Counted from the first letter of the stretch, positions 616 through 61,922 are shown. The stretch: DNA of 64,000 bases from Flaccisagitta enflata (GCA_965153355.1 OZ231126.1:18662001-18726000); one strand, 5' to 3'. The notes: generated by a model from the letters alone, not told the origin. Made by a program: numbers and translations.

Positions 616-16612
<15,997 letters not shown>

Positions 16613-26500: not shown

Positions 26501-29500
26501 TGTTTGAGCTAGCCCATTGAAATTTTGCATGGTTGGTACCTAGACCAAGAGGGTCTTTTGCTTAAATTCTGATGCGACCTACAGAATGTCAAGCAGTCCA
26601 ACCAGACCAACCAGCCTACCAGATGAAAAAATGAAAAAATGGCATAACTTCTAAAGTAATTGTCCGATTTGGTTGAAATTTTTCATGAAGCTTCCTTTAA
26701 AGATTCCTCGTCACTGGCATAAAAAAGAGCTTGGGGAAAAAATATTTTCTTCCGACAGCCCACCCAGCCAGAAATGGTACTTATAGAGATTTTTTTAAAA
26801 ACTAAAAAAATTCAAAAAAATTTCAGAAACATGATCTTACATGTTTGCTTGAACCTTATCCATAAGATTTTCGCTGTCATATTGATTTCTTAGTTGTATT
26901 TAGCTAAATTGTCTAGTAATAAAATTGCCAACGATATCTATTTAAGCCTAATTTGCATGAAAAATGAGCTTACTTAAGAAAATCCAAGTATGGATTCATA
27001 TGTAAGAATAGGTAAGCTACATGATGATGTATGGTTTTGTTCAATATTCAAACATGTAAATTTGATGAATTTCATCCCGTCCATGTCGGGTTAGCATGAC
27101 ACAAGCCTACTCCGAGTAGTAGTCTGCTAACCTTTTTTTCGAGCAGAAATAGAACATTAGGAAATCAGCAAGCAATACTACTGAATGTTTTATCTCAAGA
27201 TTTGCTTTGTCGAAAAAGGGGAAAATAACCACTCCTGGCGTAAGCCGCGATATATACCGCTGTGACTGTTAGTAGGGCGTTGGGATGGTAACCACATCCT
27301 TATCAGGACTCCCGGTTTACAAAATATTCCACTCTCTACGATACCGATTTCATCCTCTTCTTGTAAATGACTAACTGCTTTTGGGAAAATAATGATCTCT
27401 CTCCTCTTCCTCCTCTCTCTCTTCTCCTCCTCTCCCTCCCCCCCCCCTCTTATCTCTCTCTCTCTTTCTCTCTCTCGCTCACTCACTCACTCACTCACTC
27501 ACTCACTCACTTTCTCTCTCCCTCCTGTTTGTATGATTAGTTCATCACATGAAGGGACATGTTGAAATCAATGATTCGGTTACAGAATCGAAAGAAAAAA
27601 GAAAAATGTAGTCAAGATGTGACCAATGACTTTCGGGGTTGCTATGGCCATCTTATGCGCCGCTGTTTATATCTGGAACATCTTGAACGTGTTGTTTAAC
27701 ATCTGTTTAATCATAATATCTACATATATCTTCATATTTTCAAGGTCAAAACTACCGCGCCCAAGCGGTACTGCGTTCGGCCAAATTCTGGCGTTGTCGA
27801 TCCCAAAGCCTCCGTTGAGGTGGCTGTTATGTTACAACCCTTCGAATATGATCCAGCAGAGAAGAATAAACACAAGTTCATGGTGCAAACAATGTACGCA
27901 CCTGATGGACCATACGACGCAGATACTCTGGTACGTTGAAATGAATAAACTCTGCAAGCTACACTATTCGGTTTTATTCAGTGCATGAAATTTTGACTGA
28001 CAAATTCACATTGTTTTGCGACATTGACCAAGAAATGTTGGTCACGGGATACCGGATTTTTCCTGTTTTTAGCGCCCCTCTTTTTTTTCCTGGAAATAAA
28101 TCGATTTTTACTTTTGGATTTTTTGGTTATTGTTAAAAACAGAGGAGAATTTGATTTTGGTTTATTTTCATTAGTTTCAAAAGATTCAACTAGAATTCAT
28201 TGAAACAATTTAAAGAATATAGAGAGTTTTTATTTGCAAGGGGGATTTAATGTAATGTGACTATCTTTGTTTACAATTTCAAAAGAAAACACGACATGTA
28301 TCTACCCCTCCAGCAACCACATGTCTCGCGTTGGTCAGCTCTATGACGATTACGACATACGCACTCCCTGACTCCTTTAGTTAGGTTGTTCGCCGCCTTC
28401 TTTCTCTGTTGTCAATAATCTGACCCAGTATTTGTGTTTCAGTGGAAAGACGCCAAGTCCGAAGCACTGATGGACTCCAAGTTGAAATGCGTTTTCGAAT
28501 TACCTGCCGCGGAACAAGTAGTTGTTGCGGCAACCGCAAAGGAAGATGCTTCAAGCAATGAGGTACGCCTTAATCTGCCAGATTTAATCTCTCATCTTTT
28601 ACGTATAGCATGATATAGAATCTTCGTCTTTCGTCTTGGTCTGAGCTCTAGTGCCTCCTATCTCTAGATCCTTAGCGGCAGTTCATCCACGGACGACGCG
28701 GCGAGTTGAGACTTGATACACTGTACACTTATACAGTAATTAGTAATCCAGTAAGAGCTTGCCAGTACTAATGCCAGGAAATTTGATATCTAAAAGACCA
28801 ATATAATCAAATAAACAAAGATTGTAGTGCCTTGATAACCTGGGTTTGGACAACGTTATGTTTAGTAGCGATCTGAATGCTCCTAAATACTGTTAAACAT
28901 TGAGGTCACTCCAGCAATGTATAGAAAGTAAAATTAATCATTAGTGCATCTTTGACCAGGCTTCTGCCCGCGCATGCGCAGTGTCATACGATCAACATCG
29001 TCATTCCTATGAAATAAAAACAAATCTTGATTCTTTCGCCCCCATGCAACAATTCATGAATCCTAAAAAATGATAATGAATAAAATAAAAACATCGAATA
29101 TTCATAAATCAAACTAAAAGAAATCGAGCCGGCGTCGTGGTAAATCTGGCACTCGTAATCATCGTCGACGGCGCACACCTGATGCCGATGACGAGGATGA
29201 TGACACCACGGTAAAATAAGTATATTCGGTTCTTATGCAATTGGTAGAAGATTTTATCCTTTCGGGAGAGTGCTGAACATTCCTGAATGCATTTTACAGA
29301 CGTCGAGAGAGACTCCGACGACGGCAAAAATGGCCGAAGAATCGGAAAATGCGAGTTTTGCCGACACGTCCTCTTCCTCCTCATATTCCACCGAAATCGA
29401 AACTCTGAAATTGACCGTCTCTCATCTGAGCGAAAGCCTCGCCGAAACCAAGATCAAAGTCGCCGACATGGAGGAACATAAAATAGGATTAGAGGGTGAA

Positions 29501-32500
29501 ATCCGCGATCTCAAAATAACCTTGGAAGAGAAAGAGACGCGGTTGCTATTGATCAAGAACAAAGCCGACGATCACGATCGCCTCGCGCAATTGCTCGTCG
29601 AATCCGAAGAACGCGAGCGAGCGCTCGAAGACGGCATGAAAATCATGCAAATGGGCAAAGCCGAAGCGGAGAAATTGGTAAGGAACTGCGAAGCTAAGAT
29701 CGACAATGCCAAGGCCACAGAAGACGCGCTGAGGGTCAAAGATGACGAAATCGCCGTCTTAAGACAAAATAAAAGGGAATTGGAAGACAAAGTGTGCGAG
29801 GTCACCGTTAAGAATGAGGAAAAAGACCAAAGCTTACAAAGCGGAATGGCGACGATTGAAGATCTACGCGCGAGAATATCATCCAAGGAAAACGAATTGT
29901 CGGTCCTGGAAGACGAACTTAACATGGCGCGGGCGGCCTCGAAACAAATGAAAACCGAAAAGGATAAGCTGGAAGCTGAGTCCAGCTCATTGAGGGACGC
30001 GGTGTCTTCTCAAGAAAGCAACGCGTCACGTCTGATGGATGATCTGAAAAAAGAAACGAACAAGTCTAATTGCCTCACGAATGAGATAGAACAGCTAAGA
30101 ACCTCGAAATCTTGCCTCCAGTCAGATTTGGATAACGCGAGAAAGAAATCCGACAAGGCGGAGACCGAAAGCGATCAAAGGTTACGAGAGTTGACAGCTG
30201 TCAAAAAGCAACTTGACGATTTGAAGATCGATCACGACCTGTCGATGCAACGAAAAGAATCGACCATCGACGAGTTGAAAAAAGAAATCGCGAACGGGAT
30301 CATCTCGTCGGATCAATCGATCCAGCTGCAATTGATCGCGTGTAAAGAAGAGATCGATTCGTTATCGAATGAACGAGAACGTTTGCAGAAGCGTTTGGCA
30401 GATGAGGAGCTGAAGAATGTCGGACGAGCGAAGGAGTTGGAAACTTACAAAAAATTATCGGAGGACGCGAGTGGAGAATACCGAGCTCTGCTTGCGAATA
30501 GGGAAGAGGAAGCTTCGAAATCCCTCGAGGACAAGGACCAGGAAATTCAATCCCTGATGAAAACGCTGGAAGAGGAGCGGCGCTCACGCCGTGACATTGC
30601 CACGCGGCTTGAGGGAGCTGAGCAGCAAGAGCTGACGCTGCAACGAGATAAGGCTGATTTGGCAGAGCTATTGGAAACAAAATTAAACGAATTGAAAGCA
30701 GCCAAGGACGAGGCAACGTTATTGGCTTCCACTAAAGAAGAGGTACTGAGACAGAAAGACCTCGTCGTTGCCGAATGTGATGCGGCGAAAGCTTCATTGA
30801 CCATTTGCGAAGAAAATCGGAGGAAGGAAAACGAAGAATTGGCCTCGGAGGTAGAAAGATTAAGACGCCTCGTGAATGAAAAGGAAGGTCTCATTGGGGA
30901 TTTAATTGAGAAAAGCGAGATTGATGCCAGTCGGAAAAACGCGCTGCTTAATGAAATAGAGGAATTGAAAGAGGCTGTCAATGAAAAAGAATCATCTCTC
31001 GCGCAGATCGCGGAGGAACGGAATAGTGTCGAGGACGAGTCTCAGAAAAGCAAGGTAAGAATGGATAAGCTGAAAACGAAATTAGAAAAATACGTAAAAG
31101 AAAATGATGACTACATTCAAACTCTTCATCATCTTAAGTTGGACGCCGATCGGCTGATTAAAGAATTAGAATCGGAGAAAATCAAGTCGGCGAAGAACGA
31201 AGAGAAGATGCGCAAATTGACGGCCGATCACGCCGAGCTGCTCCGCAAGAGCGAAGACGCCGATGCAAAGTTGAAAAGAGAGATGGGAAAAGTGGAATCC
31301 CTCACCGCCACAAACGAGAGATTAAAGGCGGAGAAATTGGCGGTCTCTAAAACTTACGAGGAGAAAATGGGCGGGTTGTCGGTGGAGAAAAACAAAATGG
31401 CAGATTTGGTGATGAGAAAGGACGACGACATGGTAAAGAGAGAACGTGAGTTTGAAGACGAGAAGGCGAGAATACTGAAGACGTTGGAGGAGGCGGATTC
31501 GTTGAACAACGAGCAAGAGTTATCAATCCTCGCCAAAAACGGCGAGATCGGCGAATTGACGAGCAAGATCGAATCGTTAGAAGCGCAGAATAAATTTCAT
31601 AAAGATGAGATTTCCCAATTGAGAGATAAAAAGTTGAGCGAATCCAAATACTTGGCCGCGAAGATGAGTGAAACAGACTCGTTGAACACAAAGGTAAAAG
31701 ATCTGACGAGCGAGTTAAAGAGCGTTGGAAATCAGTTTGAGTTGAGTAAAAAACTGGTCACAGAATGTCAGAAAGACCGGCAGAATTTTATCGCCGAGGC
31801 TGACAAGCTTCGGGCTAAAATAAATTTACAGGTTGAAGAGAAAGAAAAAATGGAGAGTACGCTAAAGGTGATGATCTTTTGTGGAGATGAATTCGCTTGG
31901 CCTATAACCGGGCATGCCCTTTTTTTACATGGTCATTGTTTTGTTAGCTTAGGGTAACCGTTGTTGTCCCCTACGTTATCGAGGCTTCGGGAATGGTCTT
32001 CATTCTTTGTTTTTCAAAATTATTAACATTCAGTTTTGGCCATTTTATAGACCATTCAACAAGTCTCGCCCACTCCTCCGCCCGCGGGAGAGGCAAGTGG
32101 CAAATATTAATTTGAGTGACTTTTTAGTTAACATTGCCGTTATCGCGTCGGTTACCGTTTTGCTTTCGTATCTAGTCCAAATCAGCATGATTTGCCGAGC
32201 GCTTCGTTAGAGCATACATGACTTAGCGCCGTCAACTGTCCTGGATGCTAATATCCTAGTCTTGCTAATTATTTACCACCTTTGTGTGCTTTAAGTTGCC
32301 ATCCTTTCGTGGTTCGATGTACTTCGATATGAACGCGCAGGTACAATGTCCTTTGCACTGGAAAATGACAGTTTGGGAAAAGCTCGCACTGTAGCTTAAA
32401 TGGTTATTTGAATCCCGACCTATACGGTTGTATTTAGATACAGGATGGAGGGTTGACTGATGGTAGCGTCATAGAGTAGTGTGCATGTGCCCGCGCTCCC

Positions 32501-45500: not shown

Positions 45501-48500
45501 GTTCGTTTTAACGATGGGCAAGAAGAGGCAAACAGATTTTTACTCATGCATTTAGATGTTCCATCACTCCCATGTCTGTCTTTCTTTTCTGTTTGTCGAG
45601 CTGTTTGCTCATCTTATTGTTTGCCTGTCTTTCTGCCTGTCTGTATTTTTTTATCTGTCCGTTTCTCTCTGCTTGCCTTAGAAGAAAGAGCTTTCTCTCA
45701 CCATGTCACAAACAACTGCAATGCCTTCCCCTTTTTTTCCACTTCCCGCAAAACTTAGTTTTCTCCCGATGGCTCGGTGTTCATAAGCGCGAGTATGGAC
45801 GGCACAATCAACGTTTTCGACGGCAAAACTGGCGAGAAGACCGGATCTCTCGGATCCCCCGCTCATAAAGGAGGCATTTATGGCATTTCTTTCAACGCCG
45901 ACGGCACCAAACTGCTCAGTGGTAACTGATTCCCGGCTAATTTTATGATTTTCCATTTACCGTATTTTTTCTAAAAAGTGCCCCGGCCGCTTTTGAAATT
46001 GAAATATGACTTTGCTTTTTAACCCTCTTATTAGCGCCCCCTTTATATTATAGATGAACTGTCATGAACTGTCATTCAGCCTATCTTTTTCATGATAGGC
46101 TACCAAAATGTAAAATTTGACTCAAAATGAAGATATTCATTGCATATGTCTGTTTGAAAGTCTCTGAAAATGGCTCATTGATATGTATTATTTCATCATT
46201 TTACTTATTATTTCTGTCTAAATCTTTTCTAAAAAGTGTTACCGTATTTTTTCTAAAAAGCGCCCCCCTCCAAAAAGCGCCCCCCCTCTTTTTTTCTTAG
46301 TATAACATTTTTTAGAAAAGATTTAGACAGAAATAATAAGTAAAATGATGAAATAATACATCTCAATGAGCCATTTTCAGAGACTTTCAAACAGACATAT
46401 GCAATGAATATCTTCATTTTGAGTCAAATTCAACATTTTGGTAGCCTATCATGAAAAAGATAGGCTGAATGACAGTTCATCTACAATATAAAGGGGGCGC
46501 TAATTAGAGGGTTAAAAAGCAAAGTCATATTTCAATTTCAAAAGCTCCCAGGGCGCTTTTTAGAAAAAATACGGTATATTAAGAAAAAAAGAGGGGGGCG
46601 CTTTTTAGAAAAAATACTGTATCTTCACTCATTTGTTTCTGTGTTCCATTGTAGCAAGAACATGCAAATCGCTAACTGCCTAAAAGATCGCAGGCTATTC
46701 GTCGTGTTGATTTGTTTCTCTGCCGTCTATTTTGGAGTAACTGCAAATTTTCTGGTTTTTGTAGTTTCGGGTGACAAGACCTGCAAAGTTTGGGACGTCG
46801 CCGGGAAGGCGCTTCTCCACGATTTCCCCATGGGAACGACCACGGACGACATGCAAGTCGGCTGCTTATGGCAAGGTAACGCTATTGTATTGATACTTAT
46901 GACTAACTCGTTTATTATTTGCTTGATTTATTGATTGACTGATTTGTCCCATCTTTGTTGCAGGAAGTCATTTGGTATCCGTTTCGTTGAGTGGAAACAT
47001 CAACTACTTGGACTGTGATAATCCATCGAAGCCTTTAAAAGTTGTCACTGGCCACAACAAACCCATCACCGCTCTTTCTTGTAAGTTGAAAACGGCGCTG
47101 GATTTGAATGAGTTCTGGTTCATCCTTCGGACTGGGAGACGGGTAGATTGTATTGTTGTACTGGATTGGGACTGGTAAGTCAGCTTCTCATTCTCTCACT
47201 CATTCATTTACTCTCACGATCTCCACTTGCCTCTTTCCTTATTTCCTTTCCTAAGGCTGTGGGAATCGTTTGTTCTCGGGCTCATCCGACGGTCGTTTGG
47301 TTCATTGGGATCCCGTTACCGGGGACAACGACGTCGTCAAGGGCAAAGGACACACCAGCCAAGTGCAAATGCTCATTCCCAAAGGCCAAGATGAACTCCT
47401 TTCTATCGGCTGGGACGACCAATTGAAAGTCATCAGCTTGACGGGTCTGTTTAAGTACTCTCTAGCCGAAAGAGTTTGTCGCCTTTTAAGTTTGTTCAAC
47501 AGATCTCACAGATCTCTGTCGTCATTCTTTCCAGGTATGGAATACACCTCGTCTCAGGGCTTGGTATCTCAACCACGAGGCATCGACGTTAGCAAAGATG
47601 GATCTCTCGTTATAGTCGCCTGCATCAACCATGTAAGTCCCTGGAGAATGTAGATCCTATCTGTCAACCTTCTTTACTTTTTACTTCATCGCCGATCCTA
47701 TGCCTAGCCTTCTCTTATTTTCTTTTTCGCCCACGTAGATTGTCGTGATGGAAGATGGTAACGTCGTTAACACCGTGGCAGTGGATTACGAGCCAACGTC
47801 TGTGTCCATCCATCCGTCCAAGTCGGAATTCGCCGTTGGAGGATCCATGGATCAAATCCTTCACGTCTACGCGCTCTCGGCCGGGGGAAATTTCGAGGAG
47901 AAAAAGGTAGGATCACGCTAAGAGATTGGAAGATAAAGATGATCCTAGCAGATAAGTAGCCTTGACTTTTATCAGAGTAAAAGATATCCTTATTGGATTA
48001 AGACATTGCTATACGAGATTTAGAGATTACCATGTATTAGACAAAGATATCAAATATCATATCGTTCATATTCACAGAATTATTGTCAAAAACCTTAATT
48101 TAAATTTAGTTAGCACTTTCGATGTTCCACAGTCACTTTATCGGACAGTGATCGAGTTTGTATTTCTTCTGCCTTCGAATCTTTTTCAGACATTGAAACA
48201 CGACGGTGCCGTGACCGCAGTCGGATACTCTGGTAACGGAACTTTCCTAGCTGCCGGTGATGCCAACAGAAAGATCAAAGTTTACAATATCGCCGAGGAC
48301 TACGTCAATAAAACAGGTCAAGACTTGCAAATGTCAAATCCGCGAAGGGTATGGGTCTATGGGATCATGAGATGCATCTTTGCGGCCTTGATGAGGCGGA
48401 GTTGGCTCTGTATTGCTAGAGCGAAATGTTCTGACCATGCCATTGAATTCTTATAATGATATTTATCGCATTGTCATATTTTCATAGGCGAGTCATGGAC

Positions 48501-52446: not shown

Positions 52447-52755
52447 ATGATGGCGTCGGCGTCTTCGCTTCTCGGCCTCGTCACTCAGCTTCAATCGATG
52501 GAATCCTCATTCGCATCCATTCTTTTTGAGGCTGCGATGAAGTTGTCTTCGCTCACAGACGCCAAAGTCTTTCTTATGGTCGATTCGCCCGAAGGAAGGT
52601 GTGGTCTACCTTGTACTTATATGCGCTTTTCAATCGTATCGCCTCCCAGTTGTTTCTTTCGTCATGATTTCGTCTCCTTAGTCAAAGCTTTGTCTTTTGC
52701 TCTCCCTTTCTGTATCCCTGTGTTTCCCCTAGCTGTTCGGTATCTTTTCTTTCTC

Positions 52756-52840
<85 letters not shown>

Positions 52841-55800
52841 TTTCCTTCTTCTTTCCTTCTTTCTTCCTTCCTTCTTTCCTTCCTTCTTTCTTTTTTCTTT
52901 TTCTTTTTTGTCCTTAACAGTTTTTGTCGGTGACTATGACAGTAGCAGTGACTATGAGTGTATGTGTAGTCTGTCTGTCTGTCTGTGTGTCTGTCTGTTT
53001 GTCTGATTAAAACCCTTGATATTTTTGGAACCAGACTTCAGAATTTTATGAAACTTTGCTGGTGTTGTTTTTAGGTCAATAGGAGCTTGTGCACCAATTT
53101 TCAAAAAAATTCATTAACTTTTACTACCCTTTGCCTATTATTTTTGTAGTAATATTTAGCTGGGACTTAAGCGTTTTACATAGGTAGAGGGTAGTAAAGG
53201 TTTATGAATTTTTTTTTAATTTGGTATACAAGTAGAGGGTAGTAAATAAACAACCCCTGCAAAATTCGAATTAAATCTGAAGTCTGGTTTATGAGATATT
53301 AGTTTATTTATGTAGTAGTATGTTGCTAGGACTTAGGCAATTTACATAGGCAAAGGGTAGTAAAGGTATGTGAATTTTTTTCTAATTTGATGAGCATGTA
53401 GAGGGTAGTAAATAAATAAGCCCTGCAAAATTCGAATTAAATCTGAAGTCTGGTTTATGAGATATTAGCTTATTTATATAGTAATATGTTACTATGACTT
53501 AGGCAGTTTTGTATAGCAAAGGGTAGCAAAGTTATGTGAATTCTTTTTAATTTGGTATACAAGTAAAGGATATTAATTGAAGTGCCCCTGCAAAATTCGA
53601 ATTAAATCTGAAGTCTGGTTTATAAGATATTAGCTTATTAATGTAGTAATATATTACTAGGACTTTAGCAATTTCTGTAGAGGATTGGAGTTGGAATTCT
53701 TTTACTATCTCATTTATTACATTCTGATTTTTTTTTTTTCTTTAGGTTTGCCATCATGGATTTCAAGATTCATCTTCAACTACTGTCACCATCTTCAACT
53801 ACTGTCACCATCTTCAACTACTGTCACCATCTTCAACTACTGTCACCATCTTCAACTACTGTCACCATCTTCAACTACTGTCACCATCTTCAACTACTGT
53901 CACCATCTTCAACTACTGTCACCATCTTCAACTACTGTCATCATCTTCAACTACTGTCATCATCTTCAACTACTGTCATCATCTTCAACTACTGTCATCA
54001 TCTTCAACTACTGTCATCATCTTCAACTACTGTCATCATCTTCAACTACTGTCATCATCTTCAACTACTGTCATCATCTTCAACTACTGTCATCATCTTC
54101 AACTACTGTCATCATCTTCAACTACTGTCATCATCTTCAACTGTCATCATCTTTCAACCATCATCATCTTCAACTACTGTCATCATCTTCAACTACTGTC
54201 ATCATCTTCAACTACTGTCATCATCTTCAACTACTGTCATCATCTTCAACTACTGTCATCATCTTCAACTACTGTCATCATCTTCAACTACTGTCATCAT
54301 CTTCAACTTTGAAAAAAAATTTTGAAAATTTCAAAAAAAAAAATTTTTTTTGAAAATTTTTTTTTGAATTTTTTTTTTTTTTTTTTTGAAATTTTTTTCG
54401 AAAATTTTTTATATTTTTTTTCTTATTATATATTTTTTTTGTCGTGTATCTTCTCGAGTTGCGTTTACGCGACGAGAAAGCTTCAATAATTGCAGTCCCA
54501 GTCAAGGATATTAATTGAACAGCCCCTGCAAAATTCGAATATAATCTGAAGTCTTGTTTATAAGATATTAGCTTATTAATGTAATTATATGTTACTAAAA
54601 CTTTGGCGATTTATATAGAAGATTGGAGTTCATAAATTTTTTTACTTGCACATTCATTATGTTCTGATTTCTTTTCTTTAGGTGTGCTATCATGGATATC
54701 AAGATTCATCTTCATCTGCTGTCATCATCATCCACTACTGTCATCATCATCCACTACTGTCATCATCATCGACTACTGTCATCATCATCCACTACTGTCA
54801 TCATCATCCACTACTGTCATCATCATCAACTACTGTCATCATCATCAACTACTGTCATCATCATCAACTACTGTCATCATCATCAACTACTGTCATCATC
54901 ATCAACTACTGTCATCATCATCAACTACTGTCATCATCATCAACTACTGTCATCATCATCAACTACTGTCATCATCATCAACTACTGTCATCATCATCCA
55001 CTACTGTCATCATCATCCACTACTGTCATCATCATCCACTACTGTCATCATCATCCACTACTGTCATCATCATCCACTACTGTCATCATCATCCACTACT
55101 GTCATCATCATCCACTACTGTCATCATCATCCACTACTGTCATCATCATCCACTACTGTCATCATCATCCACTACTGTCATCATCATCCACTACTGTCAT
55201 CATCATCAACAATCAATCAATCAAGCTTGCCCTTATCGGGTCATCCACTGGAAGTATTTGCTGGCCTACCTGGGCTTGTTTGAGTCTCAAAAGTAATATG
55301 TTCTGTTTCAGATAGATCGGCTCAAAGATCCCAACATTTTTGTCCCCGACGAAAAGTTTTCGTCGGTGACTATGTGATGGACCTGATCGTGTAGTCTGTT
55401 CGTTTGTTTGGCGTTTAAAACCTTCTCATATTTTTTGAACCAGACTTCAGAAGTTCATGAAACTTTACCAGTGTTATTTTTATGTCAATGGTAGCTTGTG
55501 TACCAATTTTCAGAAAAATTCATTAACTTTTACTACCCTTTGCCTATTATTTTTGTAGTAATATTTTACTGGACTTAGGCAATTTACATAAGTAAAGGGT
55601 AGTAAACCTATGTGAATTTTTTTGAAATTTGGTATACAAGTAAAGGGTACTAAATAAACAACCCCTGCAAAATTCGACTTAAATCTGAAGTCTGGTTTAT
55701 GAGATATTAGCTTATTTATGTAGTAGTATGTTGCTAGGACTTAGGCAATTTACATAGGCAAAGGATAGTAAAGGTATGTGAATTTTTTTTTTTTACACAG

Positions 55801-57245
55801 TAGTAGGGTAGTAAATAAACAACGCCTGCAAAATTCAAATTAAATCTGAAGTCTGTTTTATGAGATATTAGCTTATTAATGTAGTAATATGTTACTATGA
55901 CTTAAGCAGTTTTATAGGCAAAGGGTAGTAAAGTTATGTGAATTCTTTTTTAATTTGGTATACAAGTAAACGATATTAATTGAACTGCCCCTGCAAAATT
56001 CGAATTAAATCTGAAGTCTGGTTTATAAGATATTAGCTTTTTAATGTAGTAATATGTTACCAGGACTCAGGCGATTTATATAGAAGATTGGAGTTGATGA
56101 ATTCTTTTACTTGCTCATTTATTACATTCTGATTTTTCTTTAGGTTTGCCATCATGGATTTCAAGATTCATCTTCAACTACTGGCATCATCTTCAACTAC
56201 TGTCATCATCTTCAACTACTGCCATCATCTTCAACTACTGTCATCATCTTCAACTACTGTCATCATCTTCAACTACTGTCATCATCTTCAACTACTGTCA
56301 TCATCTTCAACTACTGTCATCATCTTCAACTACTGTCATCATCTTCAACTACTGTCATCATCTTCAACTACTGTCATCATCTTCAACTACTGTCATCATC
56401 TTCAACTACTGTCATCATCTTCAACTACTGTCATCTTCAACTACTGTCATCATCTTCAACTACTGTCATCATCTTCAACTACTGTCATCATCTTCAACTA
56501 CTGTCATCATCTTCAACTACTGTCATCATCTTCAACTACTGTCATCATCTTCAACTACTGTCATCATCTTCAACTACTGTCATCATCTTCAACTACTGTC
56601 ATCATCTTCAACTACTGTCATCATCTTCAACTACTGTCATCATCTTCAACTACTGTCATCATCCTTGACTACTAAATTTTTGAAAAAATTTTTGAAAATT
56701 TAAAAAAAAATTTTTTTTTGAAAATTTTTCAAAATTTTTTTTAAAATTTAAAAAAAAAAATTTGAAAAATTTTTTTTAAATTTTTAAAAATTTTTAAATT
56801 TTTTTGAAAATTTTTAAAATTTTTAAAAATTTTTGAAAATTTAATTTTTTTTTTTTCTTTAAATTTTTTTGAATATTTTTTTCTTAGATTTTTGTTGTTA
56901 TTATCATTCACTGTTGTCATCATCATCATCCACTATTGTTGTCATTATTAAGATTTGTCATCATTAAAACAATATTGAATATTTTTTTTCTTTTTTTCTT
57001 GAAATTGCTGTCTTGTCGTGTATCTCATCGAGTTGCGTTTACGCAACGAGAAAGCTTCAAAAATTGCAGTCCCCAGTCGGGGACTGTAATTTTGAAGCTT
57101 TTTTCTTTCTTTCTTTTCCTTTCTTGTCAATGTCTCTTTCTTTCCTTCTTTCTTCCTTTCTTTCTTTCCTTATTTCTTTCCGTCTTTTCCTTCCTTGTCA
57201 ATGTCTCTTTCTTTTCTTCCTTCTTTCCTTCTTTCCTTCTTTCCT

Positions 57246-57277
<32 letters not shown>

Positions 57278-57317
57278 TCCTTCTTTCTTTCTTTCTTTCT
57301 TTTTCTCTCTCTTTGTT

Positions 57318-57357
<40 letters not shown>

Positions 57358-57517
57358 TCCTTTCTTGTCACTGTCTTTTTCTTTCCTTTCTTGTCACTGT
57401 TTCTTTCTTTCTTTCTTTCCTTCTTTTCCTTTCTTGTCACTGTCTCTTTCCTTCTTTCTTTCTTTCCTTCTTTCTTTCTTTCCTTCTTTCCTTCTTTCTT
57501 TCTTGTCACTGTTTCAT

Positions 57518-57593
<76 letters not shown>

Positions 57594-60500
57594 GTCTTTG
57601 CGTCTATGTCCCCGTCCATCTCTCATAAATGCCACCTAATGCTCCGCATGTTTTGATACCTTTTTCTCTGTTTTAAGGAGCTGGGCTGGTCACCCCATCT
57701 TGCGCCGGACGTTCTTAAGTGAGGGTCTGCATCCTCAAGAAGAAGACACAGAGATTGACGTCGACCCAAACGTCAGCGCCATCGTCAGGAAGAAGACCAT
57801 GGCCGAAAGTCTGCGCAACAATGTAAGTCCTTGAATTCTCGATAATCATCCACTGATAGCCCGGATAAATTTTTACGCTTCTAATGTGGTCATGTTATGG
57901 ATGAAAAGAAAGGTTAAATTTGACCTTAATTTGTTGATAAATCTTTGACTATTTCTTATGCAGAACCAAAGCATGACGGGCTCCGATTTGGAGGAGGACG
58001 CTTATGATAGGTGGGATGAATTGATTTACTTCAAGTGTACCTCTTTCTTGCGCGGGGTTCGTGCTCGTGCTCGTGGAGTCATTACTCTTACGTCATTTCT
58101 ATTTACACGTGTATTACAGAATGCCAACCAACTATCAACGGAAGCGAAGACTCGAATCACAACTGAGCCAGCACGGCGTCAGCGCCAAAAAACATGGGCG
58201 AATGTCACCAGGTGAATTTGACATTTCTGGTTAACTCACTGAATCGTGTGAATTGGTGTTCATGCAACGCTTGACTCATAACGCGGGTATCTATTGTGAA
58301 CCCCATGTTAGGGAGAAGAGGGAGGAAGCCAAAACGCGAGGTTCAGTCAAGTTCTCTCGATGCCGATTTCCAAGTAACCAACTATGACGGTGAGACTGTC
58401 AGCTTGCTCTGTTTGATTACTTTGCTTATTGCCATTGGCATTGACAGCCCCTATACAAGATTTCTCTCTTCTTTCTCTCCTATTTCGAAAGAGTTTCAAG
58501 AAGGATTCTCGATAAGCGAAGGCGATGACCGAAAGAAAAAAGTCAACGATAGTGTCAACTTTTGTTTATGTACTATTCAGGACTGAACGAATCTGCTGGT
58601 GCCGGTCCTCTTCACGAAGTCGACGAGTTTCGGTCAGGAGATAACTCGCTCCATCAAAACAACGAAGACCTCCAGCAGCATCAGATTCAACAGCAACTTC
58701 AACAGCAGCAGCAACAACAACAACACCACCCGCGACTACCCGCTTTGACTCCATTGCGATTTGGATCGTCCAATTTGCCAAATCAGCAGCCCAGTAGTCA
58801 CGATGGACTTTCGCCCCCTGATGAACATGGCCAAACGAACTTTGACGGTGTTGGTGGGGCAGACAGAGACGGTGCTGGTAGTTGTGACGGTAGTGGTAAC
58901 GTGAGTGCGGCCGTTGCCGACGAAGATGGCGACGTTCAAATACTCGACTCGGGGAATGGCGGCTTTTGGTCTCATCCGGCCGAAGGGACTTGCGAAGTTG
59001 ATTTCCACGCGGATAACAACGGTCCTAATGCCGACGACGAGAATGCGGCCGTCAACAGCCTGCCGCTGACGAAAGCCGAAGGGCTCGAGGGTGAAATTGG
59101 TGGCGGTCAGGTCGTTCCGTTCGTCAATCACGAGGAGGAAAAAGTAAGACCCCGTCTGCCTGATACATCTGTTTTGCTCTCATTCTTCTAATGTTTGAGA
59201 CGATCTGACATGCCCTCGTTTTTAGATGCGTCCTCGCATCTCTATAAGAGGGTCTGTCCGTCCGTCCGTCCGTCCGTCCATTACGCCTCCTTAAAAATCG
59301 CAGTTTTTGGCACTTTTCAGCCGCAAGGATGTAATATATCAAGTCGTTAGGATATTTTGTGAGCCTCATTTGATACTATGTCTTCATCTGTCTGTCCGTC
59401 CAAGTCTAGCGCCAAAGTCAATACACGCTGAGACACAGTCAGGACGCATTGTTGCCCTGTTGGGCTTGTTTGTATCTAGCAAATCCCTAAGTATCAACCT
59501 ATCTGTTTTCCGATCGGTCAGTCAGCTGCAGATTCCTGCCTGGATACGTTTTTGCCTGCCGCAACCCGCAGGTTGTCTGACAGCCAGTGGCTCTATCCAG
59601 TTTACACTTGAATCTCTCATTTCCAGTTCAGATTTTCGCTGGGAATTCCGGACGTACAGAGCGACAACGCCTACCTTTATCCCTCGGGTCGTATTTCGGG
59701 GAAAGGCACACGACCAAAGGCAATGTGGAAAGGTACGTAACAATTTGAGTATAGAAAAAAAGACAAATCGTAAGATTGAAAAATGAGCCGGGAGTAGAAA
59801 AACAAGAATAACAAGTCATCCAAGGATTGCACTCGGTAAGCGGTACCCGATGTCCTGCTGGGAGTGATAGCTGAGAGGGCATATTTGAGGCCTTTGGAGC
59901 AATTTTCCATGATATTCAATGGGAGCCTTGCATTTTTTCAATTTCTCATCAATTTGCCATGTTATTCAATGGGAATTTCACATTTTTTCCATTTTTCATC
60001 AATTTCCAATGTTATTCAAATTCGAAGTTTGCATTTTATCTATTTCCCATGTTATTCAATAGAGATTGAGGCTTGAGAAGCTTCGGGGGGGGGGGGGGCG
60101 GTAGGACGGACCTATGGAAATTCACCCCTGTGTCCTACAGGACATCGGCCCTTTTGGGCCGCTGCCCAAAAAGGAATGAAAAAAAATTAGGAAATTTAAA
60201 TGATTATTTTAAAATGCTCAAGAGAAATTACATTGAAATTGAAACAGCAAAAATTGTGTAAATGATTGAAAGAATGATCGCATTCGAACTACAGATTGAA
60301 TGGTACAGTAGATCTCGTCTAGACTTGAGATAACGGGGGCAAGCATTGTGGAACGACAAATGAAGGCAGAGAAGCGATATTTGGATCATAGACTAATCAA
60401 AGGATGACTAATTCCCCATGATAGCTGGTTGCCATGGAAACACATTTCCTATTAAAGTATCATATTTTGAGAGATTTTGTGAACAAAATGCTATGTTTGT

Positions 60501-61163
60501 AAGAATGCTTTTGGCGTTGCTAGGAGCGTATCCATGTGTGACAACCCCTAGCAACCGCTAAACGAGCGACATTCTTACAGAACATACTGTGGGAAAGTTG
60601 TAGCAAATTTTATTTTAAGCAATGTTCCCTAAAAAAATCTCTCAAAATATTGATACTTTAGCGAAAATACATGGAAATGTGTTTCCATGGCAACCAGCTA
60701 TCATGGGCAATAAAGCATCCCGTTATTATTTTATATTTGAAATATCACTCCCCTAGCTTCATTTGTTTTCTTACAATACTTGCCCCCGTTATCTCAAGTC
60801 TAGACGAGATCTACTGTATAATGATTTGACCGATTTTGGAAAGAGAGAATGGTTTTGAGAAAGGTAAAAAATGTAAAACAAATATTTGTCTCTTCATTCT
60901 TAAGAAACTGAATATCTCTTAACAAAATTGATTTTTCACTTTTAGGCTGGCGTTACTCGTTTCATTCAGAGAGCACAATTCGTAATGTGATGTTGTTCAA
61001 CTGCAGCCACCGCCAACAAAACAAATGCAAAGGACAAATCTCTGTGAACCGCGACTCTCTTCAAGTGGTCGGTCACAAGTTACACGATTTTGACACTAAC
61101 CCGGATATTGAAGCTACCCTCCAGGAAATTGACGAGAAAGAGCTCTTGGCCGGGTTCAAGTAG
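52447..61163 (+). CDS. Putative transcription regulator (~466 aa): N-terminal degenerate SRF-type MADS-like domain, basic NLS/AT-hook-like motifs, polyQ, C-terminal FLYWCH/WRKY-GCM1-like zinc finger; exons 52447-52598, 57678-57822, 57964-58010, 58120-58211, 58312-58389, 58581-59143, 59627-59732, 60946-61163
   Basis: Eight GT-AG, phase-compatible exons total 1401 nt. N-term [35 protein letters not shown]; middle QRKRR and [11 protein letters not shown]-term [59 protein letters not shown]. Domain calls are by eye. Confidence 0.72.
52926..55210 (+). mobile_element. Rearranged HINE-like element with ~166-bp repeats and two 19-mer arrays (53770-54307, 54715-55210)
   Basis: Starts gtcggtgactatg, then (GTCT)n, three ccctgcaaaattcgaattaaatctgaagtctgg units ~166 bp apart, and arrays of AACTACTGTCATCATCTTC and (A/C)ACTACTGTCATCATCATC. 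Confidence 0.7.
55342..57084 (+). mobile_element. Complete HINE/DINE-like element with ~166-bp repeats and a 19-mer array (56170-56662)
   Basis: 5' GTCCCCGACgaaaagttttcGTCGGTGAC hairpin and 3' cagtcccc-agtc-ggggactg hairpin containing GTCGGGGAC. Follows a T-run. Confidence 0.75.
57105..57593. repeat. (TTTC)n-rich simple repeat
   Basis: Directly visible; a similar tract is at 52745-52910. Confidence 0.9.
59219..59470 (+). mobile_element. Short HINE-like element; second copy at 61540-61826
   Basis: Both copies: tttttagatgcgtcctcgcatctctataagagggtctgtccgtccg...ttacgcctcct...cagtcaggacgcat..ttgcc...gggcttgtt. Confidence 0.7.
60306..60816. mobile_element. Foldback MITE, TA TSD, CAGTAGATCTCGTCTAGACTTGAGATAACGGGGGCAAG termini
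   Basis: Perfect ~38-bp terminal inverted repeats flanked by TA, with further imperfect internal palindromy. Confidence 0.88.
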
Positions 61164-61922
61164 CTTAAATTCTCAAATCATTTTCCGTTTGGTAGTATTA
61201 CTTAAATTATTCGTTTTTTTATGAACGCCCTTATTTAAATGAGTTTCGTCTTTTGAACTTACGTATTTCTTGGCATTGTTCTCCGTCGGTTCTTGTGTAG
61301 ATGTATGTATCCAAATTCTCACATCTTGACAGGAGCGATATAATCATTTGATCTGACTATGATATATGTATACCCGTTTTAAGCTTAAAAGGGTATATGC
61401 TCCTATTTTTACTTTTCGATTGTTACTTCAATCGCAACGCAATATGTATGAGCTGGAACAGACTGTTTTTTGGTACCATCTGCATCTTCTAGTTTTACTG
61501 GTTTTTGATCTATTTGATTAAAGTCGACCAGCCTGGCCGTTTTTAGATGCGTCCTCGCATCTCTATAAGAGGGTCTGTCCGTCCGTCGGTCGGTCCGTCG
61601 GTCGGTCGGTCGGTCGGTCCGTTACGCCTCCTTGAAAATCGCAGTTTTTGGCCCTTTTCAGCCGTGAGGATGTTAAGGATCAAGTCAAACACTCGTTAGA
61701 ATGTTCTGAGAGCCTCTTTTGATCTGATAATAAGTCTTTTCATCTGTCAGTCAAACCAAATCTAGTGCCGAAGTCGCTACGCACAGAAATGCAGTCAGGA
61801 CGCATCGTTGCCTGATCGGGCTTGTTATTTTGACGTCTCGGTGTTCAATGCCAGTTGTTCACTCATTCTTTTGTTTCGATATGTCCTGTTATTTTGGAAC
61901 GAAAAAATATATACGCCATATT

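Follow-up and report, generated by a model that had tools for sequence, protein, structure and literature searches.

Can the core of a MADS box, a textbook DNA-binding and dimerisation domain, give up its DNA-reading surface and be kept as the head of a protein that carries a different DNA-binding domain at its other end? The question is raised by a gene in a stretch of 64,000 nucleotides (nt) of Flaccisagitta enflata DNA (GCA_965153355.1 OZ231126.1:18662001-18726000), which is referred to here as the window and along which all positions are counted. Three-frame translation and the joined reading frame gave eight coding exons on the plus strand at 52447-61163, with an ATG at 52447, a TAG stop at 61161-61163, GT..AG borders at all seven introns and a product of 466 amino acids (aa). 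An initial annotation of the window had given these coordinates, the spliced reading and a 42-residue N-terminal peptide, all of which proved exact, the peptide being encoded by exons 1 and 2. We propose, with a probability of about 0.7, that the gene encodes an expressed nuclear regulator in which a MADS-fold head without the basic face (the N-module) is followed by a basic patch, a disordered linker and a FLYWCH-like finger, and in which the N-module pairs chains.

Four orthologues of 466, 446, 455 and 425 aa were recovered by a word search with exon 8, and these were the only ones at E ≤ 0.01 among 12 candidates. They are transcript assemblies, since their source contigs of 1.6-1.9 kb are too short to hold the 8.7-kb gene. 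The same layout was found in all four. When the window product was compared with that of the closest orthologue, P0003, the two were identical in 94 of 103 columns over the first 100 aa, in 106 of 110 over the last 110 aa and in 80 of 192 over the linker. Little or no variation is seen among the four orthologues in the N-module, in the basic stretches of exons 4 and 5 and in the entire finger, including its acidic tail. Two additional proteins, P0007 and P0048, cover only pieces of the linker or finger and are 99% and 96% identical to the window. A pattern scan of metagenome contigs with the orthologue alignment returned 247 matches, none of which was confirmed.

The N-module is encoded by the coding part of exon 1 (52447-52598, plus strand; aa 1-51), which runs from the ATG to a GT donor, was matched by the orthologues in tblastn and covers the long helix and the first strand, and by exon 2 (57678-57822, plus strand; aa 51-99), which supplies the second strand, the short helix and two extra strands. 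When exon 1 alone was compared with Pfam, its sole match at E ≤ 10 was SRF-TF (PF00319, gathering cut-off 26 bits) with an E-value of 0.007 and 16.2 bits, aa 26-50 being aligned to profile positions 19-43 of 48. SRF-TF was also matched by three of the four orthologues (E 0.023-0.046, 13.6-14.6 bits). At E ≤ 1 it was the most frequent Pfam family among the N-module proteins described below, with matches in 13 of 147 and a best E-value of 0.0061, while the runner-up was found in 5. An Atlas feature search with aa 1-100 placed SRF-TF clusters on top with values of 0.79, 0.77 and 0.77, which is taken as a lead only.

The predicted structure points in the same direction. With a family alignment of 122 rows, AlphaFold2 (AF2) modelled the N-module of P0003 with a predicted local distance difference test (pLDDT) value of 84.2, and the value exceeded 90 through the core. 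The elements in the model are helix H3-38, strands E44-49 and E52-57, helix H59-67 and strands E77-81 and E88-92, so that the long helix, the antiparallel two-stranded hairpin and the second helix of the MADS core fold are all present, as judged on the predicted structure. Foldseek was used to compare this model with the PDB, and all 24 rows listed through rank 36 were MADS cores. These include SRF (1hbx, 1k6o and 1srs), MEF2 entries, SEPALLATA3 (SEP3; 7nb0) and MCM1 (1mnm). The superposition on SRF had a probability of 1.00 and a root mean square deviation of 1.5 Å over 48 columns with 27% identity, and the first non-MADS fold among the rows listed stood at rank 37 with a probability of 0.08. 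Judged by the matched ranges, Pfam, Foldseek and the alignment by eye seem to agree on which segment corresponds to the MADS core. With an SRF-TF score below the cut-off, the AF2 model and the MADS-only Foldseek rows behind it, the likeness of the N-terminus to the SRF core that had been claimed in the initial annotation stands as that of a divergent relative. We regard it as probable that the N-module is homologous to MADS.

The N-module differs from the MADS core in its charge. True MADS boxes carry many lysine and arginine residues at positions where the N-module is non-basic. Taken over the first 40 aligned positions, the net charge of the helix averages -2.0 in 118 family rows, of which 105 have only one or two lysine or arginine residues there. 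The window product itself has one basic residue in the helix within aa 1-40, K34 in P0003 numbering. Neither the basic N-terminal arm nor the basic DNA-contacting face of the helix, as known from the MADS core, is found in the N-module. The hydrophobic spacing of the helix is retained across the 118 rows, and E21, E30, K34, F44, R53 and G57 (P0003 numbering) are conserved in at least 90% of the family rows. The N-module is thus without the lysine/arginine face by which MADS boxes read DNA, and the replacement of the basic stretch by neutral or acidic residues, first noticed in this one protein, is borne out by the mean charge of the 118 rows.

The N-module heads a large unannotated protein family. 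When 1.84 billion representatives were searched by HMMER with the orthologue profile as query, 269 protein clusters reached E ≤ 1e-3, and 99 of them also reached E ≤ 1e-10. Among the best 150 of the 269, 144 match the N-terminal part of the profile only, one is a full-length orthologue and five, P0007 and P0048 among them, correspond to parts of the linker or finger of this gene. A hidden Markov model (HMM) of the family placed the module in 172 of 186 collected proteins, a count that is circular as evidence and informative for position: the module starts within the first 10 residues in 157 of the 172. By the same HMM, P0044 and P0128 have two N-modules in tandem per chain, which may represent an intramolecular pair. 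None of the 25 Pfam families listed at E ≤ 0.01 overlies the N-module. The 20 family clusters that were looked up all come from JGI/IMG, Logan or ENA assemblies of unannotated transcripts or metagenomes; one of them bears a name, and this looks like an automatic mis-annotation. A word-based family search gave at least 17 matches and no named relative.

The C-terminal parts of the family vary. Among the 80 members of at least 250 aa, 56 end in the same conserved domain of ~100 aa, for which no Pfam match recurs (P0010, P0016, P0021, P0024, P0036 and P0047 are examples). Three have FLYWCH, and the remaining 21 consist of two pairs and 17 singletons. A homeodomain (P0008), psq-like helix-turn-helix (HTH) repeats (P0124), a methyl-CpG-binding domain (MBD; P0061) and a BED finger were each seen in single members, and no Pfam domain was found in 19 of the 20 odd-ended members scanned. 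The suggestion that the module has been reused with differing DNA-binding domains therefore gains support, as the N-module precedes a homeodomain, psq-like HTH repeats, an MBD, a BED finger and, in most cases, the other C-terminal domain. A tree of the N-module was built by a quick method on 92 columns, with 22 of 147 rows left out that had fewer than 78 residues. The FLYWCH trio grouped together with a support of 99. A clade of 16 rows also joined the trio to the members bearing a homeodomain or HTH; for this clade, a value of 88 in the Shimodaira-Hasegawa-like approximate likelihood ratio test (SH-aLRT) is too weak to build on.

Between the N-module and the C-terminal finger lie two conserved basic stretches and a variable linker. 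Exon 3 (57964-58010, plus strand; 47 nt, aa 100-115) is acidic and variable; it is below the length detectable by tblastn, has joints on either side in the X1, X2 and X3 contigs and closes the reading frame. Exon 4 (58120-58211, plus strand; aa 115-146), also supported by contig joints, encodes a conserved basic stretch with RKRR at aa 122-125. This RKRR is invariant in all four orthologues and, judged by its composition, is likely to be a nuclear localisation signal. Exon 5 (58312-58389, plus strand; aa 146-172) opens with GRRGRKPKR (aa 146-154), which by eye resembles the basic patch of an AT-hook. GRRGRKPK is invariant in the four orthologues, and the last residue of the patch is L in P0001. 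Exon 5 gave no Pfam match of any kind at E ≤ 10, AT-hook (PF02178) included, and the core of the patch reads RGRKP, in which a K interrupts the canonical RGRP. Exon 6 (58581-59143, plus strand; aa 172-359) encodes the linker, which is variable, rich in Q, G and D and probably disordered; its pLDDT is below 50 in a full-length model of P0003.

The FLYWCH-like domain starts at ~59699 in exon 7 (59627-59732, plus strand; aa 360-395) and extends to ~61085 in exon 8 (60946-61163, plus strand; aa 395-466 and the stop), where it is followed by a conserved acidic C-terminal tail. FLYWCH (PF04500, gathering cut-off 23.6 bits) was the sole Pfam match of exon 8 alone at E ≤ 10, with an E-value of 1.7e-4 and 22.1 bits. 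It was matched by all four orthologues as well (E 1.9e-4 to 3e-4), the match starting in exon 7 at aa 373 of P0003. In an Atlas feature search with aa 350-455 of P0003, all 30 matches were FLYWCH clusters, with values of 0.91-0.92 and between 195 and 202 of the 256 features in common. Few members of these clusters are labelled, and the phylum named most often for them is Arthropoda. The putative ligands, C414-x7-C422-x15-H438-x2-H441, follow the C, C, H, H order and are invariant in the four orthologues. The pattern that had been noticed here, KG..P...WKGWRY with C-x7-C and HxxH, is present as read, and the FLYWCH-like character that had been assigned to the C-terminus is corroborated by the Pfam E-values of ~2e-4 in the four orthologues and by the Atlas clusters. 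By sequence, the finger probably belongs, as a divergent form, to the FLYWCH branch of the WRKY-GCM1 superfamily.

We propose that the N-terminal domain of ~90 aa descends from the MADS-box core fold, or at least adopts it, and that its DNA-reading face has been lost. Two chains would associate through the N-module, a role played by the MADS core in SRF, MEF2 and MCM1. The patch formed by RKRR ... GRRGRKPKR would probably serve nuclear import and perhaps make minor-groove contacts, and the fast-evolving, presumably disordered linker would join the head to the finger. Contact with DNA, or with a partner in chromatin, would be made by the finger with the help of the basic patch, and the whole protein would act like the BTB-, ZAD- or SCAN-headed factors. 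In bioRxiv 10.1101/2023.01.10.523452, the helices and strands of MADS are described as the interface for both dimerisation and DNA binding. By analogy, we lean slightly towards dimerisation through the N-module, and by analogy also we infer that the finger may bind DNA. The tandem modules, the strict N-terminal position and the range of DNA-binding domains found with it accord with a module for pairing, comparable to BTB, ZAD or SCAN. For self-association as such, the tandem modules and the retained hydrophobic spacing of the helix are at most suggestive. A two-copy complex prediction with the N-terminal 100 aa, run with the family alignment unused and with no controls, scored 0.26 against a mark of 0.32 and counts neither for nor against pairing.

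Several results weigh against this proposal. The SRF-TF scores of 13.6-16.2 bits are all well under the 26-bit cut-off, and 134 of the 147 N-module family members have no SRF-TF match even at E ≤ 1. The Atlas value of 0.79 falls in the range reached by shuffled proteins. None of the 241 Foldseek matches reached E ≤ 0.001, the best being 0.14. When PDB sequences were searched by HMMER with the four-orthologue profile, the N-terminal 100 aa and two family profiles, no MADS chain was found at E ≤ 10, and the matches obtained were of low complexity or due to chance. The fold is small and simple and might have arisen by convergence, and AlphaFold may have leaned on MADS structures that it had learned. 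As to the finger, its FLYWCH scores of 21.3-22.1 bits are a near miss under the 23.6-bit cut-off, and the spacing of its histidines is H-x2-H, where the FLYWCH family has H-x-H. The position two residues before the first Cys, at which a W is characteristic of FLYWCH according to Babu et al. 2006 (PMC1702500), is occupied by a different aromatic residue, F412 (in F-N-C), both in the window product and in each of the four orthologues. A search of PDB sequences with the C-terminal 109 aa gave one chance match and nothing relevant. The full-length AF2 model of P0003, made from four sequences, had a pLDDT of 36 overall and ~40 at the finger and was unusable. Dimerisation and DNA binding are both proposed by analogy, and the isoform-specific C-terminus of at least one FLYWCH protein is said to serve protein contacts rather than DNA binding (PMC5666082).

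Some of these results bear on whether the N-module is an unrelated new domain, with a function such as, perhaps, cofactor docking, whose likeness to MADS came about by convergence on a helix-hairpin-helix arrangement or by predictor bias. In favour of such a domain are the SRF-TF scores, all below the Pfam cut-off, the family profiles that retrieve no MADS chain among PDB sequences and Foldseek, where no E-value is significant. It would also suit the near-invariant E21, E30, K34, F44, R53 and G57, which are partly unlike the MADS consensus, and the extra strands E77-81 and E88-92, which lie beyond the matched SRF core. However, a Pfam HMM, language-model features and a predicted structure searched with Foldseek are three differing methods, and they arrived at the same family and, by the ranges, at the same segment. 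An identity of 27% over 48 structural columns at 1.5 Å is high for convergence, and no other fold came before rank 37 in the Foldseek rows listed. We therefore consider an unrelated domain unlikely and prefer a divergent MADS core.

A MADS-like head without basic residues could also be pictured as an Id-like antagonist or modifier. The non-basic module would then pair with the animal's own SRF or MEF2, and the resulting dimers would have one DNA-reading half missing or would be redirected by FLYWCH. This is speculation, to which the loss of the basic residues lends itself, as does the fold likeness to the SRF core, which extends to the part that makes up the dimer interface in MADS proteins (bioRxiv 10.1101/2023.01.10.523452). 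Yet the hundreds of distinct clusters and the tandem modules in two proteins fit pairing within the family better than the titration of two conserved factors, and a dedicated antagonist could do without a finger and a basic patch that are conserved. Such a role is in our estimate quite improbable, and pairing of N-module chains with one another is the reading that we retain.

The gene at this locus is functional, and it is both spliced and expressed. Of the words sampled from 57600-61400, 22-29% were present in five marine metatranscriptome runs from two studies. Contigs and reads were aligned to 57600-61400, a range that leaves out the repeats of intron 1, and that intron is supported by the overhanging letters of a contig rather than by a spanning alignment. 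The GT..AG joints of introns 2, 3 and 6 were found in all three contig runs and those of introns 4, 5 and 7 in two of the three; they include 57822>57964 (three of three), 59143>59627 and 59732>60946. A metatranscriptome contig of 894 nt matches exon 2 and extends 385 letters upstream of the match. The last 30 of these letters equal 52566-52595 of the window with one synonymous mismatch, a match that is unique in the window and was equalled by none of 100 shuffles. The alignment of the contig starts at 57675, because AAG ends both exon 1 and intron 1. The overhang matches the end of exon 1 and so confirms the 52598/57678 junction for a transcript nearly identical to that of the gene. The contigs differ from the window at 10 coding positions; 8 of the differences are synonymous, and both replacements lie in the linker part encoded by exon 6. 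From the length of the contig, exon 1 probably has ~236 nt more of 5' untranslated region upstream.

The orthologues bear on the same junction. In three of the four transcript-derived sequences, exons 1 and 2 are in a single open reading frame (ORF) with the predicted junction (...VDSPEG/RSWAGHP...), and the fourth starts at Met33, within exon 1. The initial annotation had placed exon 1 and the finger exons in one transcript joined from 52598 to 57678, and both the contig and these ORFs agree with it. A polyA raw-read run, X6, gave 69 reads, all of them partial and on repeats and none informative on the exons. That exon 1 comes from another transcript and the finger gene begins 3' of the 5-kb repeat-filled interval is scarcely credible: the intervening stretch is long and repetitive, reads could not be aligned across intron 1 and X6 has no exon coverage, but in one contig exon 2 is joined to the end of exon 1, three of the four orthologous transcripts encode both exons in one ORF and exon 2 has no in-frame start upstream of its acceptor.

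Intron 1 (52599-57677, plus strand; 5079 nt, phase 2, GT..AG) consists of tandem repeats over about half of its length. A composite unit occurs in it twice and is made up of three copies of a 165-166-nt repeat (53138-53665 and 55547-56083) followed by a minisatellite of ~26-29 copies of 19 nt (53770-54308 and 56168-56663). A related 19-nt array is located at 54719-55207, and the whole is bordered by a (TTTC)n tract (52746-52900) on one side and a (CTTT)n tract (57098-57599) on the other. Intron 6 contains a short interspersed element (59217-59470) that includes a run of (GTCC)n or (GTCG)n, and a second copy lies downstream of the gene (61538-61826); the two are 77-97% identical in pieces. Contig depth rises to 75-976 at the start of the element, in the bin 59124-59250, and the element is therefore abundant or transcribed elsewhere. 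In intron 7, an inverted repeat resembling a miniature inverted-repeat transposable element (MITE) occupies 60304-60818, with arms of 146 nt that are 84% complementary and 223 nt apart; contig depth there reaches ~1170.

Other features were found in the rest of the window. On the minus strand, 3453-13416 holds long overlapping ORFs with a Pao peptidase (Peptidase_A17, E 1.1e-8) and DUF5641 (E 2.6e-4), which identify a BEL/Pao-type long terminal repeat (LTR) retrotransposon. BEL/Pao elements are typical of animals. Taken by themselves, these elements, the eukaryotic make-up of the introns, the marine metatranscriptomes in which the gene is found and the mostly arthropod labels in the nearest FLYWCH clusters would suggest a planktonic animal of the sea, possibly an arthropod, as the source. 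Exons of neighbouring genes are seen on the plus strand at 16025-16612, with an SH3 domain (E 4e-16), and at 47956-48456, with a WD40 or EML-like propeller blade (E 2.7e-5). An open frame of 917 aa at 29204-31957 on the plus strand has no Pfam match. The minus-strand segment 36495-39252 shows a strong G/A skew (GC skew ~0.58) and contains several open frames, one of which, of 640 aa, was scanned and had no Pfam match. Rfam gave no match on the window.

If the proposal is true, a MADS-derived domain that gave up DNA contact would be a new re-use of an old transcription-factor fold, and the N-module would be a new domain family for the databases. The protein offers a concrete case for asking whether the MADS core serves as a pure pairing module. 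We put at even odds a broader proposal, in which marine animals, probably arthropod plankton, have a third MADS-fold lineage with hundreds of members beside SRF and MEF2. Its portable N-terminal pairing module would have been shuffled onto FLYWCH, homeodomain, psq-HTH, MBD, BED and the uncharacterised C-terminal domain, giving a combinatorial network like those of BTB and ZAD proteins. For comparison, the animal MADS-box genes are given as SRF-type and MEF2-type in bioRxiv 10.1101/2023.01.10.523452. In the literature searched, supplementary files aside, no protein with FLYWCH or another DNA-binding domain was found to be described as having a MADS-like head.

Four known systems may be set beside this protein. 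The first is the MADS core of SRF, MCM1 and MEF2 (PF00319; 1SRS, 1HBX, 1MNM and 1EGW), in which a long helix is likewise followed by a two-stranded hairpin and then a short helix, and with which the motif A-x-x-L-S-x-L-T-D-A-x-V-x-L-h-V-x-S-x-x-G-R of the N-module aligns. Apart from the basic surface, the differences are that the helix of the N-module is longer toward the N-terminus and that two strands are added after the core. Moreover, the N-module lies at the extreme N-terminus and the DNA-binding part, if any, is elsewhere in the chain, unlike in MADS proteins.

The second comparison is with PEB-1 and FLH of C. elegans, which likewise have one FLYWCH finger per chain and, to our knowledge, no MADS-like head. 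Their finger is reported as required for DNA binding (reference 56 in PMC1702500).

A closer parallel in layout is the Mod(mdg4)-type BTB-FLYWCH protein of insects, which has the same combination of an N-terminal protein-protein module and a single C-terminal FLYWCH-type finger (PMC1702500). The head here is MADS-like instead of BTB/POZ, and the finger has F where the Mod(mdg4)-type finger, like its family, has W two residues before the first Cys. No alternative finger-exon array was found within the 64-kb window by tblastn. With 173 related proteins as queries, tblastn detected no second N-module or finger exon in the window, and since all 181 matches lie inside the gene, the locus is not a mod(mdg4)-like array.

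The ZAD, SCAN and BTB zinc-finger factors follow the same logic: a small domain for self-association at residue 1, then a disordered linker and, towards the C-terminus, the part that binds DNA. In the present case, self-association is proposed. Lineage-specific expansion is perhaps common to the ZAD factors (PMC7913770) and the N-module family. The N-module differs from all of these heads in its fold, and its C-terminal partners, which comprise FLYWCH, homeodomain, HTH, MBD, BED and the further domain shared by most long members, are more varied than theirs.

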